This document shows positions 25,450-34,807 of a stretch of DNA of 64,000 nucleotides, piece by piece. The translations under genes and the position numbers were made by a program. Below the pieces are notes generated by a model that saw only the letters and a list, made by a program, of their open reading frames with translations, did not search any database and had not been told where the DNA came from. The DNA is from an uncultured Lachnospiraceae bacterium (GTDB lineage Bacteria > Bacillota > Clostridia > Christensenellales > UBA1242): positions 12,583 through 76,582 of the forward strand of contig CAZYDU010000001.1 of NCBI GenBank assembly GCA_964646345.1, written 5' to 3'. How positions within the stretch are numbered: position 1 is the first letter of the stretch; each line of letters opens with the position of its first letter.

Positions 25450-26882
<1,433 letters not shown>

Positions 26883-26914
26883 AATCTTCTCCTTTTTGTA
26901 TATGATTATTAATA

Positions 26915-27106
26915 GTGTCATTTCGAGCGGAGCAAGGCGGAGTCGAGAAATCCCCCATCTCGAAGACGTAACACATTTCATACGGATAGTTCATGGGGCT
27001 CTCTCCACGCAGTCGCTTCGCTCATTTGGTCGAGATGACACAACACCCCAGTGCCATTTCGACTGGAGCGTTAGCGGAATGGAGAAATCCCCCATCTCGA
27101 AGATGC
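26915..27106. repeat. dispersed palindromic-module repeat, locus 2 (A - linker - inverted B - A')
   Basis: A is 26915-26972, linker CATTTCATACGGATAGTTCA, B runs to 27042, and a second A-like unit is 27051-27106. The ends GTGTCATTTCGAGC / GGTCGAGATGACAC are imperfect inverted repeats. Confidence 0.85.
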
Positions 27107-29219: not shown

Positions 29220-29831
29220 TTATTTATGTAAATTCTTTAAACATACAACAACAAGTTCTTCACTCTTCATTCCGCTTTCGTAGTTGTTTTTTACACTTTC
29301 GGTGGCGGTATTTTTCTGAACACCCATGTTAGTTAAAACATCATAAGCTTCTTGCATTTCTTTGTTTAATGCAGGAGTTCCAAGGTTTAGATTTGTATCA
29401 TTTGCAATCAAGTTTTCTAAGTTTGCTTCCCCGCCAAGCTTCCCATTAAGTTCCAAAACAATTCTTTCAGTTGTCTTTTTGCCAAGACCTTTTATGCTAG
29501 ACAAAAGTTTAACATCGCCTGAAATAATTGCTCTTATAATTTCATCAATAGGAAGCCCTGAAAGTATTGTTATTGCCATTTTTGGACCAACCCCCGAAAC
29601 CAATAAAAGGTCATTAAATAATAACTTTTCTTTTTTATCTAAAAATCCAAACAAACTCATTCCGTCATCTCTAACTTGCAAATATGTCAAAATGGTTTGT
29701 GGTTCAGCTGAACCTGAAAGTTTGTATGCCGTGTATGATGAACAAACAACTTCAAATGCAATAGCACCAGTATCAACAACAACCGTATTGTCATCAATCA
29801 TTGTAATTTTTCCAGTTAGTGAATAAATCAT
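29220..29831 (-). CDS. ruvA: Holliday junction DNA helicase RuvA
   Basis: MIYSLTGK start, HhH motifs VSGVGPKMA and IKGLGKKTTERI. Confidence 0.93.
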   Translation of the reverse strand: MIYSLTGKITMIDDNTVVVDTGAIAFEVVCSSYTAYKLSGSAEPQTILTYLQVRDDGMSLFGFLDKKEKLLFNDLLLVSGVGPKMAITILSGLPIDEIIRAIISGDVKLLSSIKGLGKKTTERIVLELNGKLGGEANLENLIANDTNLNLGTPALNKEMQEAYDVLTNMGVQKNTATESVKNNYESGMKSEELVVVCLKNLHK

Positions 29832-30391
29832 TATTTTAATTTCCTTTTTATAGTTTGATTAATATCATTTTTCATTAAGTTATTATTAGTCCAAACAGTT
29901 GCGTCACTATTTGTAAGTTTTGTATTGGTTTGAGCCAAAGTTAAAGCAACAGCCAAAGCGTCCGCAGCATCATCAGGCTTTGGAATGCTTTTTAATTTAA
30001 GTATAGTTTTTGTCATAAACTGAACCGATTTTTTATCAGCTTTGCCATCACCAGTAATCGAAAGTTTAATTTGCATTGGAGTAAATTCAAAAACATTTGG
30101 GACGGTTTTTATTGCCGTACACAAAATAACTCCCCTTGCTTCGGCAACCGCAATACCCGTTGTTATATTTTGATTAAAAAACAATTCTTCAACAGCTACT
30201 GCATCGGGCTGAAATTTTTCCATAAGCTCCTGCATTCCGTCTTGTATCATAGCAAGTCTCACTGGAAAATCTTCTTCTTTCGGTGTGTTTATCGCACCAA
30301 AATCCAAAACCCTGCAATTTCCCCTGTTATCCTTTTCAATTACGCCATAACCAACTATCGCATATCCTGGGTCAATACCTAATATTCTCAT
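29831..30391 (-). CDS. ruvC: crossover junction endodeoxyribonuclease RuvC
   Basis: MRILGIDPGY canonical N-terminus, EELFF, DAADALA. Start set at ATG 30391; the ORF-track TTG extension is rejected. The stop overlaps the ruvA start (TAATG). Confidence 0.92.
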   Translation of the reverse strand: MRILGIDPGYAIVGYGVIEKDNRGNCRVLDFGAINTPKEEDFPVRLAMIQDGMQELMEKFQPDAVAVEELFFNQNITTGIAVAEARGVILCTAIKTVPNVFEFTPMQIKLSITGDGKADKKSVQFMTKTILKLKSIPKPDDAADALAVALTLAQTNTKLTNSDATVWTNNNLMKNDINQTIKRKLK

Positions 30392-30487
30392 AATAATAAA
30401 ATAAACCAAATAAACATTAAAGTCAATAAATTTGCAATACGTGAAGAATTAAAGTAATTTAGACTACTTAAAAAAATAAAAAGACTA
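30384..30487. repeat. 104-bp direct repeat, ruvC-proximal copy
   Basis: Base-for-base identical to 32469-32572. Contains the first 8 nt of ruvC (ATGAGAAT on the minus strand) plus its upstream region. Confidence 0.95.
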
Positions 30488-30520
30488 GGCAAAATTGAAG
30501 TGCACCCCCAATGCCTAGTT
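30471..30520 (-). terminator. putative terminator after the radical SAM gene
   Basis: Stem ACTAGGCA (30484-30491) / TGCCTAGT (30512-30519) with a 20-nt loop, then a T-rich tract on the minus strand. The stem starts inside the repeat. Confidence 0.4.
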
Positions 30521-30532
30521 ATATTTAGTAAG

Positions 30533-32019
30533 TTAAACTTTCATTATTTCACTACTTTTTAGTTGATTCACATCATGTGAATAATTTAAATATTCAAATA
30601 ATCGATTTGATTGATTTTTTTTCAAATAGTTATTTTCACTAAAAAATTGCTCTATCTTCAACAATAAATTTGCATCTTTGATAAAATAATGTCCATTCTT
30701 TATTAAATTATAATAATCAAATAAAACTGTTTCATCAATTTTACCCTGATTGTTTAATTGTGTAAGAATATCATATGTTGATTGATTATAAAAAGTTTCC
30801 AATTCATCATCCGACATATTTATAAACATTTTTAAATCGTTAGATAACAAATCAACCTGCTCTTTACCAACTAATCCACTTTTTAGATATCTTTTTAAAA
30901 TGGTAATTTGATAAAATAATAATGTATTCTTTTCTTGCAACAAATACAGGCCTGAATAGTCACGTATATTTATTGCAATAGCCCTATCTGCCGCACACTT
31001 ATTTACCTTTCGCACTATTCTGTCCCGTTCAAAATAATTCATGTTTAAAAAAGAATAACTAACAGGGTCTTTATAAAGTTTTTCTAATATTTCTAACTTT
31101 GAATGCTTGTAAATATTTGGCATATTTTCCAACTGATAATTTCCCCAAGTTGAAATATTGCCTGCATAATTTATAAGAAAATCTAATCCATATTCACCTA
31201 AACTATCTCTATAAATTGAAAAATTATTCATCGGGCTACTATTAATATCTTTCTCAAACACATCAAAAGCTCTTTTTACTAAATTTTTATCATTCAAATT
31301 TACATTAAGATTTGGATAAAACATTTTCGATACTTCTATATCAAAAGATAAACCATTTTTAGTCTTGCCTATGTATTTTTTATTTTTAATTATTTCTTTA
31401 ATTGAAACATTATTAGCTAATTTTGAAAAAATCGTTTCATCATTTTCCATTGTATGGAATTTTACTTGAAAGTTCTTCAACTTCGAATAATTTTCATCGA
31501 AATAATCAATAATATTCTCAATATTTGAAAAATTAACATTTTTATTGTGAAACTTATCCACTGATAAACGCAATATAACATTTACATCATTATTTCTTGC
31601 AATCTTTTCATTATATATGGTATTTATAATTTCAAAAGTCTGTTCTTTATTATCAGCCCAATATCCACTAGTAACAATTATAATATTATCAGTTTTAACG
31701 GTTCTTACTAACCTTATTAATTGTTCAAAATTCTCAAATGGTTCACCGCCACCAGATATTTCCAAAGTTTCCAAATTAACAAAATTTAGAAATTCAACCA
31801 ATTTTTCAGTTCCACGTTTTGAAAATTCATTCATTTCAGAATTATATTCAACGTTTCTTTTTTTGACTGAAAAAAACAAAAAGGACATTCTACAGGACAA
31901 AATTTCGTTAGAAAAACAACCGCCATAGACTTGCCCCTATAATAAGAAGGTTTATCTATTTTTACTTTTTTATTAATTTCTTCTATATATTTTTGTGGAT
32001 AATCAAATATATTTTTCAC
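30533..32019 (-). CDS. radical SAM protein with a long Cys-poor C-terminal region. The frame is interrupted at an A7 run (needs a -1 shift; pseudogene, slippage or homopolymer error).
   Basis: ORF 31831..32019 carries LTKFCPVECPFCFF (CxxxCxxC). ORF 30533..31900, in the -1 frame, carries ISGGGEPF about 40 aa later. The frames join at TCAAAAAAAG (31858-31864). The GTG start overlaps the NUDIX stop (GTGA). Confidence 0.7.
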
Positions 32020-32432
32020 AATTTTGTCCCTATTATTTTTAATATCCTTTCATAAACATCAGGATATGTTGTATTATTTGGAAATTTTTCAAATAATTTA
32101 ATTTCGGCCATTTCATAATTTGGCAAAGATTCCAATTTATTAATATTCGCATAAAATAAGGCACTATATTGAATGGGACTCATATTATAATTCGCAAGAT
32201 AACCTAATAGTTTAAATTCATCACAAATAGCTCCGGATTCTTCAAATAATTCCCTTCTAGCAGCTTCTACCATAGTTTCATTTTTTTCAATATGCCCACC
32301 AACTATTTCATAAGTACTTCTTTCTTTGTGTCTACAAAAAACCCACTTATCCTTATACCTTGCTAAAACCAAAACTATTGAAATATTCTTAGTTTTTAAA
32401 TTATTATAATATCTAATGTTTCGAACACTCAT
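32016..32432 (-). CDS. NUDIX hydrolase
   Basis: Nudix box GGHIEKNETMVEAARRELFEESG. Start set at the ATG (MSVRNIRYY) 8 nt after GGTGG. Confidence 0.8.
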   Translation of the reverse strand: MSVRNIRYYNNLKTKNISIVLVLARYKDKWVFCRHKERSTYEIVGGHIEKNETMVEAARRELFEESGAICDEFKLLGYLANYNMSPIQYSALFYANINKLESLPNYEMAEIKLFEKFPNNTTYPDVYERILKIIGTKL

Positions 32433-32468
32433 ATTAATTACCACCAACCATGTTAATTATAATAACTA

Positions 32469-32572
32469 ATTCTCATAATAATAAAATAAACCAAATAAAC
32501 ATTAAAGTCAATAAATTTGCAATACGTGAAGAATTAAAGTAATTTAGACTACTTAAAAAAATAAAAAGACTA
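32469..32572. repeat. 104-bp direct repeat, distal copy
   Basis: Identical to 30384-30487. Here the ruvC start is followed by a 7-codon stub (MRISYYN*) and then the NUDIX gene. Confidence 0.95.
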
Positions 32573-32593
32573 AACAATAAATTTAGTCTTTTT
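32563..32593 (-). terminator. rho-independent terminator after the zeta-like gene
   Basis: Stem AAAAAGACTAAA (32563-32574) / TTTAGTCTTTTT (32582-32593). The 5' arm lies inside the 104-bp repeat. Confidence 0.65.
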
Positions 32594-32608
32594 CAAGTTT
32601 GTTATTTT

Positions 32609-33568
32609 TTATTGAAATTGTTTTGTGTTTTTTATAACATTGCAAACATCTTCAAATTGGTTTACATGTGCTGAAATTGCACCCCTTTTTTCCATTTGAG
32701 TTTTCACTTTAGCTATCCTTTCGTCAGCTTCTTGCATTGTTAAATCTCTATCTTCATCAACTGCTTCTCTATATTCAGCAAGAAGTATAGATTTATCATC
32801 TGTTATAAATATTGGTTCTGGTAATTCTTCTTCATTACCAGTAATCACTGCTCTTTTTAATAAATTTATACTAACTTCTGGGTGATTTATAAGCAAATCT
32901 TTAATAACAATTTCAACTGCCTTAAATGATTCTCTTGCACGATTAAAATCAGTTAATTTTGGAGATTGCATATTTGATTCAATCTGACCCTCGAAACGTT
33001 CATGTATAGAAAGAAGACTATTTTCTTCCGAAACTGCTAAAATATAAGCTTCAATATCATAACCAAAACGTGCAAGTTCTTCAAAATTAATATTAAACAA
33101 AAGTTCATTTGGAGATGGAGCGACTTCTATTAGAATATTATATCCTTTTTGTAACGCTTCTGCATAAACTTCATCTCTATGCAAATAAGCATCAAGTCCT
33201 GTTAAATGACCATAATATTGTGGATACTTTTCTTTTATTTCGTCCTTGTTTGGATTAAAAGCCTTAAATTCATCAGAGTCAATGATGATTGTATTGCTGT
33301 TATTTTTATAAATAGCTGTTGTTAAGTTGCTTTTTCCAGCCCCAGTTTGTGCAATAACCAAAAATGCTTTTGGTCTCTCAACTGCACGGTCGACAGGTTT
33401 CTTATTCTTAAAACAATTATCCCTAATCTGTTGCAAGACTCTATAATGTTCTTCTTCACTTAAAGCATAATCTAACATAAGCTGTGCAACTTCTGGCTTG
33501 ATTTTTGGCGAAATTCTTGGTTTCAAAAATTCAATATATTCTGGGCTTTTCATGTTTTTTTGTTCCAT
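32609..33568 (-). CDS. zeta/PezT-like toxin family P-loop kinase
   Basis: Walker A AQTGAGKSN, then IIIDSDEFKAFNP and GYNILIEVAP, laid out as in zeta toxins. 319 aa with about 60 extra C-terminal residues. Confidence 0.72.
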   Translation of the reverse strand: MEQKNMKSPEYIEFLKPRISPKIKPEVAQLMLDYALSEEEHYRVLQQIRDNCFKNKKPVDRAVERPKAFLVIAQTGAGKSNLTTAIYKNNSNTIIIDSDEFKAFNPNKDEIKEKYPQYYGHLTGLDAYLHRDEVYAEALQKGYNILIEVAPSPNELLFNINFEELARFGYDIEAYILAVSEENSLLSIHERFEGQIESNMQSPKLTDFNRARESFKAVEIVIKDLLINHPEVSINLLKRAVITGNEEELPEPIFITDDKSILLAEYREAVDEDRDLTMQEADERIAKVKTQMEKRGAISAHVNQFEDVCNVIKNTKQFQ

Positions 33569-33780
33569 TATTTCACCCCTTTATTTGTGTTTAACACAAA
33601 ATCTATTGCTCTCATATTACCCCTGAAAATAAGCTCTTTTTCATTGAAAGCCTCGTTAAGTTCTTGATTGTATAGCTCAACTTCATACTCGTTTTTTGCT
33701 GAGTCTAATTTGTTGTAAATATCAGCAATTTTTTCCGTTATAATCTGAATTGCTATTTCTAGTTTGACATGACTTACCAT
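33568..33780 (-). CDS. putative antitoxin (small helical protein, epsilon/PezA-position)
   Basis: 70 aa ORF. Its stop overlaps the toxin start (TAATG), and the RBS for the toxin lies inside its 3' end. It sits behind a strong promoter. Called by context only. Confidence 0.5.
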   Translation of the reverse strand: MVSHVKLEIAIQIITEKIADIYNKLDSAKNEYEVELYNQELNEAFNEKELIFRGNMRAIDFVLNTNKGVK

Positions 33781-33808
33781 TACAATTCTCCTAAAATTTT
33801 CTAATTAT

Positions 33809-33838
33809 ATTATATTAGAAAAGCCTCAAATTTGTCAA
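33809..33838 (-). promoter_or_regulatory. sigma-A type promoter for the antitoxin/toxin operon
   Basis: Minus strand: TTGACA (33838-33833), N18, TATAAT (33814-33809). AGGAGA RBS before the ATG at 33780. Confidence 0.55.
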
Positions 33839-33988
33839 CATTGTAGCATATATTAAATATAAATTACTATAATGACTAAAACTTATGACAACAATCTTAA
33901 TTTAATTTTTCTAATAATAACCGATAGTTACCATATTTTACATTTAGTACTCAATAAAGATACACTAGCTTTGAAATTTTATATTCTG

Positions 33989-34732
33989 TTACTTGTAAGT
34001 TTCTTCGAGTTCATGTTGAATTTCTTCTGCACGAGCAATTTGCTCATTCAAATTCCATTTACCAATATTTTTGCCGTCTCGTAAAAACATTGAACCACAT
34101 TGATGAAAATAAAATTCAATATTTCGTTCTTTTGCTTCCAAAAACAAATCCCTAACCCATTCAAATCTAATTGGACGAACTTCGTTTTGTGGAGCCATTT
34201 CGCCTCCAACATTTACACACTTAATTAAACCAGTGTCTAAATATTTTCCAAGTTTTATTGGACCAATTAGCGGAGAACAAAAAACTTCTCTATGTTTTAC
34301 TGGTGCTTTCAAAAAATGTTGTAGACGAATATCAGCCATCTCTTGATTTTCTATTGAAATACTAATATGTACATGATCCCAACCATCGCCCCAATCTGAC
34401 GGAACACACTCTGCAATTCTTTCTGGTCTTTTCGTGGTTGTAACAAAAATGCAATCCTTTCTTCTGCGAATAAAATTCCAACATTCCTCACGCCACTCAT
34501 CTGCTTCTTCAATAAAAAAATCCGAAGAAAAGCACAACTTAACCAATGAATTTGGTGGACAATCTTTATCTTTCAATTCAAAAGTCGTTTTTCCTTTCGT
34601 TATAATGGTCGTATCTCTACCATATCTTTTATCCATTTTATAAACAAAACAATTCTTACAACCAGCACTAGCTTTTTTGCAACCATGCCAAGGGTTCCAA
34701 GGAATTGCTTTCCCAATTTTATCATTTTGCAT
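33989..34732 (-). CDS. DUF5131 / phage Gp37-Gp68 family protein
   Basis: N-terminal IPWNPWHGCKKASAGCKNCF signature, SSDFF, TTTKRPERI, VGGEM..RP, FYFHQCG. Collinear with the Gp37/Gp68 family. Confidence 0.8.
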   Translation of the reverse strand: MQNDKIGKAIPWNPWHGCKKASAGCKNCFVYKMDKRYGRDTTIITKGKTTFELKDKDCPPNSLVKLCFSSDFFIEEADEWREECWNFIRRRKDCIFVTTTKRPERIAECVPSDWGDGWDHVHISISIENQEMADIRLQHFLKAPVKHREVFCSPLIGPIKLGKYLDTGLIKCVNVGGEMAPQNEVRPIRFEWVRDLFLEAKERNIEFYFHQCGSMFLRDGKNIGKWNLNEQIARAEEIQHELEETYK

Positions 34733-34807
34733 AATATATTACCCCCATTAAAAAAGAGCTTGCTTATTGCAAATTACAATAATTTCAAGCTATCTTTTAC
34801 TTATATT

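Follow-up and report, generated by a model that had tools for sequence, protein, structure and literature searches.

A 64,000-nucleotide stretch of an uncultured Lachnospiraceae genome of approximately 1 Mb (contig CAZYDU010000001.1, positions 12,583 to 76,582 of the forward strand), referred to here as the window, carries a two-gene module in which a gene for a NUDIX hydrolase overlaps a gene for a radical S-adenosylmethionine (SAM) enzyme. The radical-SAM enzyme is a member of an undescribed, uncharacterised family, and the partners that accompany this family in other genomes lead us to regard the module, with moderate confidence, as a nucleotide-modifying radical-SAM/NUDIX mechanism. The copy in the window is probably a fresh pseudogene. 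A first-pass annotation of the window had put forward a nucleotide-modifying pair of possible viperin-like character; the former part is supported by strong comparative evidence, with phosphoesterases, deaminases and kinases occurring as partners or fusions, while the proposed kinship to viperin is not. Gene structure, family membership, fold, partner statistics and island status were obtained directly and are described accordingly.

Membership in the radical-SAM superfamily is apparent from the CPVECPFC and GGGEPF motifs, from Pfam matches to Fer4_12/Radical_SAM and from a structural model that matches radical-SAM structures. The core motifs reported in the first-pass annotation (CxxxCxxC, GGGEPF and SVDKFH) are all present, in the form of CPVECPFC, GGGEPF and LRLSVDKFH, the other points of its description that could be checked are likewise correct, and its estimate of about 40 residues between the cluster and GGGEPF corresponds to 42 residues from C48 to G90 in a read-through protein of 495 amino acids, which was built for comparison only. 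Beyond the generic core (Fer4_12, Radical_SAM), searches of Pfam, NCBIfam and PADLOC and phmmer searches of the PDB returned nothing for the window fragments or for an intact homologue, in agreement with the earlier statement that no family could be recognised. Literature searches likewise did not find a description of the radical-SAM family or of its partner combination. In total, 85 homologues were collected, and an exhaustive profile search recovered 401 cluster representatives at E<=1e-10, of which 163 reached E<=1e-30. The protein is approximately 495-530 amino acids long. Restriction of the pair to this one genome had been named beforehand as an argument against a nucleotide-modifying role; the pair has instead proved widespread, albeit rare and patchy.

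The fold was modelled with AlphaFold2 on the intact homologue P0002, a metagenomic protein of 501 amino acids that is 69-71% identical to the window protein, using the family alignment (predicted local distance difference test score, pLDDT, 91.5; predicted TM-score 0.91). As modelled, the enzyme begins with a partial TIM barrel for the [4Fe-4S] cluster and SAM (residues ~30-240). A beta-hairpin region follows (~269-291), and the remainder is a cysteine-free cap made up of helices alone (~308-480), in which the invariant polar residues N351, R353, D354 and H444 are located. When the model was compared with the PDB using Foldseek, the radical-SAM core alone was matched, with EpeE/YydG as the best structure (E 8e-10), followed by MoaA, anSME and BlsE, and no counterpart of the beta-hairpin together with the ~190-residue helical domain was present among the solved structures matched. 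Across 78 aligned sequences no invariant cysteine occurs outside C41, C45 and C48. The read-through protein contains these three and C342, with no others, so that the roughly 300 C-terminal residues hold a single cysteine, as had been noted before; C342 is not conserved. A SPASM/twitch maturase, which the first-pass annotation had already discounted, is therefore rejected on account of this single non-conserved cysteine after the core and the lack of auxiliary-cluster cysteines.

Viperin converts nucleoside triphosphates (NTPs) into their 3'-deoxy-3',4'-didehydro derivatives and thereby protects against phage. The present family resembles viperin and the prokaryotic viperins (pVips) in its N-terminal CxxxCxxC radical-SAM domain without an auxiliary cluster, in a probable NTP substrate, in the nucleotide kinases that adjoin it in some clades and in its patchy, mobile distribution. 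It differs in length (~500 as against ~300-360 amino acids), in the unique ~190-residue helical C-terminal domain and in an obligate phosphoesterase partner. No viperin appeared among the best 50 Foldseek matches of the P0002 model, and a profile search of the PDB placed viperins (6b4c, 7n7i) at E ~0.1. The PADLOC pVip hidden Markov model (PDLC02903) did not match P0002 or P0041, and reached 17 bits over ~70 N-terminal positions, the region of the cluster motif, in P0032 and P0084. An identity with viperin or pVips was accordingly rejected, since this model, the profile search, the structural ranking, the size and the architecture all fail to support it.

The same profile search gave YydG as the best match (E 1e-12, residues 35-239), and anSME and PqqE were also found among the structural and profile matches. 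YydG/EpeE (PDB 8AI1-8AI6) is thus the nearest solved core, with a target-normalised TM-score (TMt) of 0.65-0.69, which raises the question of whether the enzyme modifies peptides or proteins, with the NUDIX gene being an unrelated neighbour. Nonetheless, the similarity is limited to the radical-SAM core, and the family differs from YydG/EpeE in lacking the auxiliary [4Fe-4S] cysteines, an equivalent of Cys223 and a precursor-peptide gene, while its partners are nucleotide enzymes. With no conserved non-cluster cysteine available as a hydrogen donor and no conserved small precursor open reading frame (ORF) in the neighbourhoods, a YydG-type epimerase was rejected as an assignment. A chance neighbourhood is untenable in view of the domains to which the enzyme is fused (NUDIX, histidine phosphatase, adenosine deaminase, dCTP-deaminase-like), and a peptide-modifying role is considered very improbable.

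The evidence that carries the nucleotide-modifying interpretation comes from a survey of partners at 57 loci, in which ORFs were called, neighbours were clustered and a maximum-likelihood tree of the radical-SAM domain was built. Well-supported clades were obtained, each with its own partner set. Clade I comprises the window, L001, L005, L014, L022, L024, L035 (Lihuaxuella thermophila DSM 46701) and L048 (Thermoactinomyces sp. DSM 45892), and a YtkD-like NUDIX gene lies immediately upstream in all eight, as an N-terminal fusion in L024. The 138-residue NUDIX enzyme named as the partner in the first-pass annotation is thus borne out as such. Overlaps of 4 nucleotides between the two genes are frequent (L002-L004, L007, L014 and the window), and fusions occur elsewhere at the N-terminus (P0011, P0012, as well as L024) and at the C-terminus (L021, L023, L025, L026, L028, L050 and L066). 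These two kinds of fusion are independent and make use of different NUDIX lineages. In clade V, from gut Clostridia, the radical-SAM gene is accompanied by an ATP-grasp-like protein and by either a 174-residue histidine phosphatase or a C-terminal NUDIX fusion of a different NUDIX lineage, so that phosphatase and NUDIX swap for one another as a non-orthologous replacement. The ATP-grasp-like protein (partner family c1) was modelled with a pLDDT of 81 and showed weak Foldseek matches to ATP-grasp structures; profile searches of the PDB gave no match for partner families c1, c9 and c19. Throughout the survey, a His_Phos_1 gene adjoins the radical-SAM gene in approximately 17 loci and is fused to it in L012 and P0084, while a CYTH triphosphatase gene overlaps it in L056.

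Other clades combine the enzyme with deaminases, kinases and reductases. Clade III contains radical-SAM::adenosine-deaminase fusions (L051, L052 and L061) and a separate adjacent deaminase (L057), with a TMK-like or HprK-like kinase and, except in L057, where none was seen, a NUDIX protein as further partners. Clade IV, again from gut Clostridia, has an adenosine deaminase, an aldo-keto reductase (absent from L036 and L038) and a small nucleotidyltransferase-like protein. Adjacent adenosine deaminases were found in L027, L031-33, L036, L038, L057, L058 and L068, the last being the most distant branch, and the deaminase partners retain the DLHxH, HVGE, H and (S/T)DD motifs, that is, all zinc and catalytic motifs. 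In clade VI, found in Chlamydiae, Legionellaceae and Paracaedibacteraceae, the set consists of a deoxynucleoside kinase, the radical-SAM enzyme, a 358-residue protein, an EEP phosphatase, a NUDIX protein and an aldo-keto reductase; it is complete in Chlamydiae, with just the 358-residue protein adjacent in Paracaedibacteraceae. Kinase neighbours are therefore of the deoxynucleoside kinase, TMK-like and HprK-like types, and the aldo-keto reductase occurs in two unrelated contexts, with an RmlD-like short-chain dehydrogenase/reductase (SDR) in L067. Large multidomain representatives add fusions to PHP, dCTP-deaminase/dUTPase-like, B12 radical-SAM and ThsA-type SIR2 (E 4.5e-26) domains, the B12 radical-SAM fusion being confined to a single family member, P0122.

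Several features of these partners were recorded separately. In P0094, P0101, P0102, P0122, P0132, P0135 and P0142 the radical-SAM domain lies inside proteins of 1.1 to 6.6 thousand residues. A protein of 350-365 amino acids is always encoded 3' of the radical-SAM gene in the Chlamydiae, Legionellaceae and Paracaedibacteraceae (L049:7547-8620, L054, L055 and L059); it has an N-terminal hydrophobic segment, no detectable family and the invariant motifs HH..S.SHGKPVLGSG and SGHY.P, which suggest that it is an enzyme. At L027:152-571 and eight other loci, a partner of 126-149 amino acids displays a minimal nucleotidyltransferase signature (G-A-S, 12 residues, D-L-D-L) and has no Pfam, NCBIfam or PDB sequence match.

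Four phosphoesterase folds and two nucleobase deaminase folds recur as fusions or neighbours, and at least three kinase types lie adjacent, a pattern that is difficult to account for with any substrate other than a phosphorylated nucleoside. The involvement of NUDIX and CYTH enzymes suggests the di- or triphosphate level, and that of the adenosine deaminases an adenine substrate. On this basis we infer a nucleotide substrate, an order of steps and a chemistry as follows. The radical-SAM enzyme would cleave SAM to a 5'-deoxyadenosyl radical, and a phosphorylated nucleoside would lose a hydrogen to this radical; the likeliest substrate is the di- or triphosphate of a purine (adenine) nucleoside. 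The sugar or base would thereby be altered, dehydration, deoxygenation and epimerisation being examples of such a change. The NUDIX partner would then strip pyrophosphate from the product, which would be passed on as a monophosphate or nucleoside, or would hold a toxic triphosphate at a low level. In the sister clades the same hydrolysis step would be performed by a histidine phosphatase, CYTH, EEP or PHP enzyme, and kinases, adenosine deaminase and a keto-reductase would lengthen the pathway; the aldo-keto and RmlD-like reductases would fit a keto intermediate by analogy with radical dehydratase/reductase pairs. In the clade of the window the system is pared down to the radical-SAM enzyme and the NUDIX protein, which may process the product or cap its level.

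A number of observations weigh against this interpretation. For every family member, the nucleotide substrate is suggested through guilt by association in genomic sequence. In the clade of the window NUDIX is the sole partner, and NUDIX enzymes also use non-nucleotide diphosphates. Relatives of the NUDIX protein at approximately 43% identity are found in ordinary contexts without a radical-SAM gene, which indicates that the partner was recruited from a general Firmicute NUDIX lineage. The adenosine deaminases could instead clear the 5'-deoxyadenosine by-product, and the nearest solved relative of the enzyme is a peptide epimerase (YydG/EpeE).

To our knowledge, only a small number of radical-SAM enzymes use free nucleotides, namely viperin, MoaA, QueE and OxsB. 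Each of these has opened a field, whether antiviral chain terminators, cofactor chemistry or nucleoside antibiotics. Within this theme the present family constitutes an undescribed variant and a good target for enzymology: the confident predicted fold, the new substrate-capping domain and the unusually rich fusions point to undescribed nucleotide chemistry, and since its members come from Clostridia of the human and animal gut, cultured Thermoactinomycetaceae and intracellular bacteria associated with amoebae, the family is within reach of experiment. What it produces could be a new antimetabolite or an immune nucleotide. A broader proposal, offered tentatively and as doubtful, is that the family represents a second, viperin-independent lineage of nucleotide-modifying radical-SAM enzymes, which with a swappable phosphoesterase (NUDIX, histidine phosphatase, CYTH or PHP) would make a new modified purine nucleotide or nucleoside, such as a deoxygenated or epimerised adenosine analogue, for use in conflict, either in phage defence or in antagonism by gut Clostridia and intracellular Chlamydiae and Legionellaceae.

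Two biological roles have been considered for a nucleotide-modifying module. One is nucleoside or nucleotide secondary metabolism or salvage, in which a modified nucleoside would be made as an antimetabolite or signal, or an unusual nucleotide converted or cleaned up. The partner sets resemble pathways (kinase, radical-SAM enzyme, aldo-keto or SDR reductase, phosphoesterase, deaminase) and bring to mind those for oxetanocin, puromycin and tubercidin. Pur7 is a NUDIX enzyme of the puromycin pathway. In oxetanocin A formation the logic of OxsB/OxsA is similar, with a radical-SAM enzyme acting on phosphorylated (deoxy)adenosine, a phosphohydrolase that trims phosphates and a reductase that finishes the product; OxsB depends on cobalamin, however, OxsA belongs to the HD-domain enzymes, and the present proteins have no sequence relationship to either. 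The tubercidin pathway, with TubG as its NUDIX enzyme, provides a precedent for biosynthesis with a radical-SAM enzyme and a NUDIX hydrolase (PMC6112128). Synteny is also stable in one clade, and among the carriers are reduced genomes of host-dependent bacteria, which rely on salvage. Conversely, consistent linkage to a transporter, resistance gene or regulator is lacking, the two-gene form in the clade of the window is very small for a pathway, and Rfam gave no match to a riboswitch or other RNA close to the module, either in the window or in 11 homologous loci. Taken as a specific assignment, a metabolic or salvage role remains a possible one which we hold with low confidence.

The other role is a viperin-like anti-phage defence, in which an NTP would be turned into a chain-terminating or toxic analogue during infection and the NUDIX enzyme would protect the host or tune the level of the analogue. 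Its patchy, horizontally transferred distribution is in keeping with defence, as are the island of the window with its zeta-type toxin pair and DUF5131 gene (PADLOC PDC-M41B, PDC-M30B), the position of L024 beside ToxN and a HinfI restriction-modification system, and the integrase or relaxase genes near L012, L028, L053, L057 and L059. One family member is fused to the ThsA-type SIR2 domain, and the deaminases and kinases among the partners are reminiscent of established defences that act through nucleotides. Ophion, a validated anti-phage system composed of the radical-SAM protein OpnA, a PHP phosphoesterase and a phosphoribosyltransferase, sets a precedent for a radical-SAM enzyme other than viperin that acts with a phosphoesterase (10.1101/2025.09.30.679545). 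One member of the present family is PHP-fused, and no phosphoribosyltransferase partner was seen in the neighbourhoods of the family. Against defence, the enzyme is not a viperin by sequence or by fold ranking, and the family has no significant match in PADLOC-DB 2.0. In approximately 17 species of one Clostridia clade the genes occupy a fixed position, with a P-type ATPase gene on one side and rpsF-ssb-rpsR on the other, an arrangement that is not typical of defence islands, and Chlamydiae, which are obligately intracellular, also carry the family. A conserved sensor or regulator is lacking, and the closest relative of the window cassette has other neighbours. No relatives of the radical-SAM gene were found in IMG/VR or among INPHARED phages, and PLSDB gave one weak N-terminal match. 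Defence is therefore rated as rather unlikely, and the biosynthesis or salvage of a modified nucleoside is given at least equal weight.

In the window, the module is situated on the minus strand between ruvC and a zeta-toxin-like gene (Table 1). The NUDIX stop codon and the GTG start of the radical-SAM gene (32019) share 4 nucleotides (GTGA), and the two genes probably form a translationally coupled module which was acquired by horizontal transfer. An alternative in-frame TTG start of the NUDIX gene at 32447 would give 143 amino acids. The NUDIX box (Gx5Ex7REUxEExGU) is intact, reading G-HIEKN-E-TMVEAAR-RELFEESGA, and is present as GHIEKNETMVEAARRELFEESGA; the Pfam match given in Table 1 agrees with it. 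The best NCBIfam model is YtkD, at 64 bits against a cutoff of 154 bits, so that the protein is not assigned as a YtkD equivalog. It is 73% identical to the NUDIX protein beside P0002 and 37-51% identical to other clade I NUDIX partners, and in PADLOC it has a generic match only, to candidate PDC-S07 (E 4e-6).

Table 1. Coordinates of the module and adjoining features in the window.
Feature	Position	Strand	Remarks
ruvC	29831..30409		borders the module
Direct repeat, copy 1	30384..30492	.	ruvC promoter, leader and first codons; directly follows the radical-SAM gene
Radical-SAM gene, main part (frame B)	30533..31861	-	within 455-aa ORF 30533..31900
Radical-SAM gene, 5' fragment (frame A)	31831..32019	-	62 aa; GTG start 32019; CPVECPFC
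A7 run, frame switch point of radical-SAM gene	31858..31864	-	alignment vs L001, L002
NUDIX hydrolase gene	32016..32432	-	138 aa from ATG 32432; PF00293 E 1.2e-10
Direct repeat, copy 2	32469..32577	.	duplicated ruvC promoter region, upstream of NUDIX
Zeta-toxin-like gene	32609..33568		PF06414 E 1.5e-22; 70-aa ORF precedes it
DUF5131 gene	33989-34732	-	E 2.6e-32

Compared with intact homologues, the radical-SAM gene of the window is one base out of register inside the A7 run, which explains why a "repaired" protein had been spoken of in the first-pass annotation. Frame A encodes MKNIF...CPVECPFCFFQSKK, followed by a stop after 10 further codons, and its product aligns to residues 1-58 of P0002 with 76% identity. 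Frame B supplies the remaining ~440 residues, with the motifs GGGEPF, VTSGYWA, LRLSVDKFH, HTMEND, NIRDYSG and GHY, and spans the beta-hairpin region and the ~190-residue all-helical C-terminal domain, which contains NIRDYSG and GHY. P0002 is continuous across the break (...FFQSKKRK..., ...FFQSKKRKIENN...). In the 78-sequence alignment, the read-through protein retains all 25 residues that are invariant in the family and 31 of the 34 that are nearly so.

Two interpretations of this break have to be weighed. It is possible, though we doubt it, that the shift of frame arose in assembly or is bypassed, the pair being fully functional in this organism. The break does fall in a homopolymer and every invariant residue is retained, and A_AAA_AAA is a classical slippery heptamer at which a -1 slip restores the exact register of the homologue. 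The accuracy of the assembly was audited using approximately 400 kb of two genomes of the same genus, from which 317 ORFs of at least 150 amino acids were searched against the whole assembly of the window genome. An orthologue-like match was obtained for 216, of which 203 were full length in a single frame and none was frame-split. This indicates that the assembly is not prone to homopolymer errors, and hence that the break is more likely a genuine, recent mutation. In addition, the homologue has a G within the run (AAAAAAGAG), so that the window differs by more than a miscount of run length, unless a synonymous change came first. As for bypass, a segment of 91 nucleotides that covers the A7 run and what follows it folds no more stably than shuffled sequences (z = 0.11), and the downstream stimulatory RNA structure is thus absent; programmed frameshifting was rejected as having no positive support. 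The frameshift is probably real and recent, and the module in this genome has most likely lost its activity; low expression by way of slippage at the A7 run is the most that would be expected.

The accessory island anticipated in the first-pass annotation, with its zeta-type toxin pair and DUF5131 gene, was recovered and can be delimited. In two genomes of the same genus the island is missing and yebC directly adjoins ruvC, which indicates that 30410-34807 is an insertion, of 4.4 kb, holding the NUDIX gene, the radical-SAM gene, the zeta-like pair and the DUF5131 gene. Homologues occur in 2 of 120 other sampled genomes of the taxonomic family of the host, as distant fused forms of 39% and 31% identity, and the pair is accessory in this lineage. 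Two direct repeats of 109 nucleotides, 98% identical and spaced 2085 bp apart, bracket the pair, both containing a promoter-like TTGACT-17-TATTTT; the second copy, now upstream of NUDIX, probably drives the NUDIX/radical-SAM pair. A degenerate repeat (60 nucleotides, 72%) likewise brackets the pair in L001 and L002. Metagenomic carriers of P0002 have the NUDIX and radical-SAM genes at the same site, upstream of ruvC-ruvA-ruvB-queA, and the other neighbours of that cassette are YpsA/SLOG-like, helix-turn-helix and DUF488 genes.

Traces of exchange are visible at this site. The last ~17 radical-SAM codons and the terminator of L001 (4470-4540) are homologous to the 3' end of the zeta-toxin gene (window 32600-32660, minus strand), and the C-termini match accordingly, ...HVCEIGKNTKQFQ in the L001 radical-SAM protein and ...DVCNVIKNTKQFQ in the zeta toxin of the window. 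The cassette has recombined with a zeta gene at the site upstream of ruvC. The different neighbours and the zeta-derived 3' end indicate that the site has been rearranged repeatedly and that neither the zeta pair nor DUF5131 is a conserved partner. A role for the zeta toxin as the kinase of the module was considered and rejected, since the cassette of the closest relative has other neighbours and a terminator and promoter lie between the genes here. For this genome, the copy can thus be viewed as a recently broken passenger at a recombination-prone site.

Some additional aspects of the surroundings were observed. The DUF5131 gene matches the PADLOC candidate-defence components PDC-M41B and PDC-M30B with E ~1e-24; it also shows a weak match to the NCBIfam "radical SAM mobile pair protein A" (TIGR04471) and has C-x6-C-x2-C near its N-terminus. 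Outside the window, at G000:C1:2707-3144, two proteins from the same genus (271 and 314 amino acids) match over approximately half of their length only, and this may be a truncated gene in the genome of the window. Between queA and tgt, an ORF for a MazG-like NTP pyrophosphohydrolase is encoded at 26574-26981 on the minus strand of the window; it is absent from both same-genus genomes, in which queA adjoins tgt, and constitutes a second insertion of a small nucleotide hydrolase in the same operon string.

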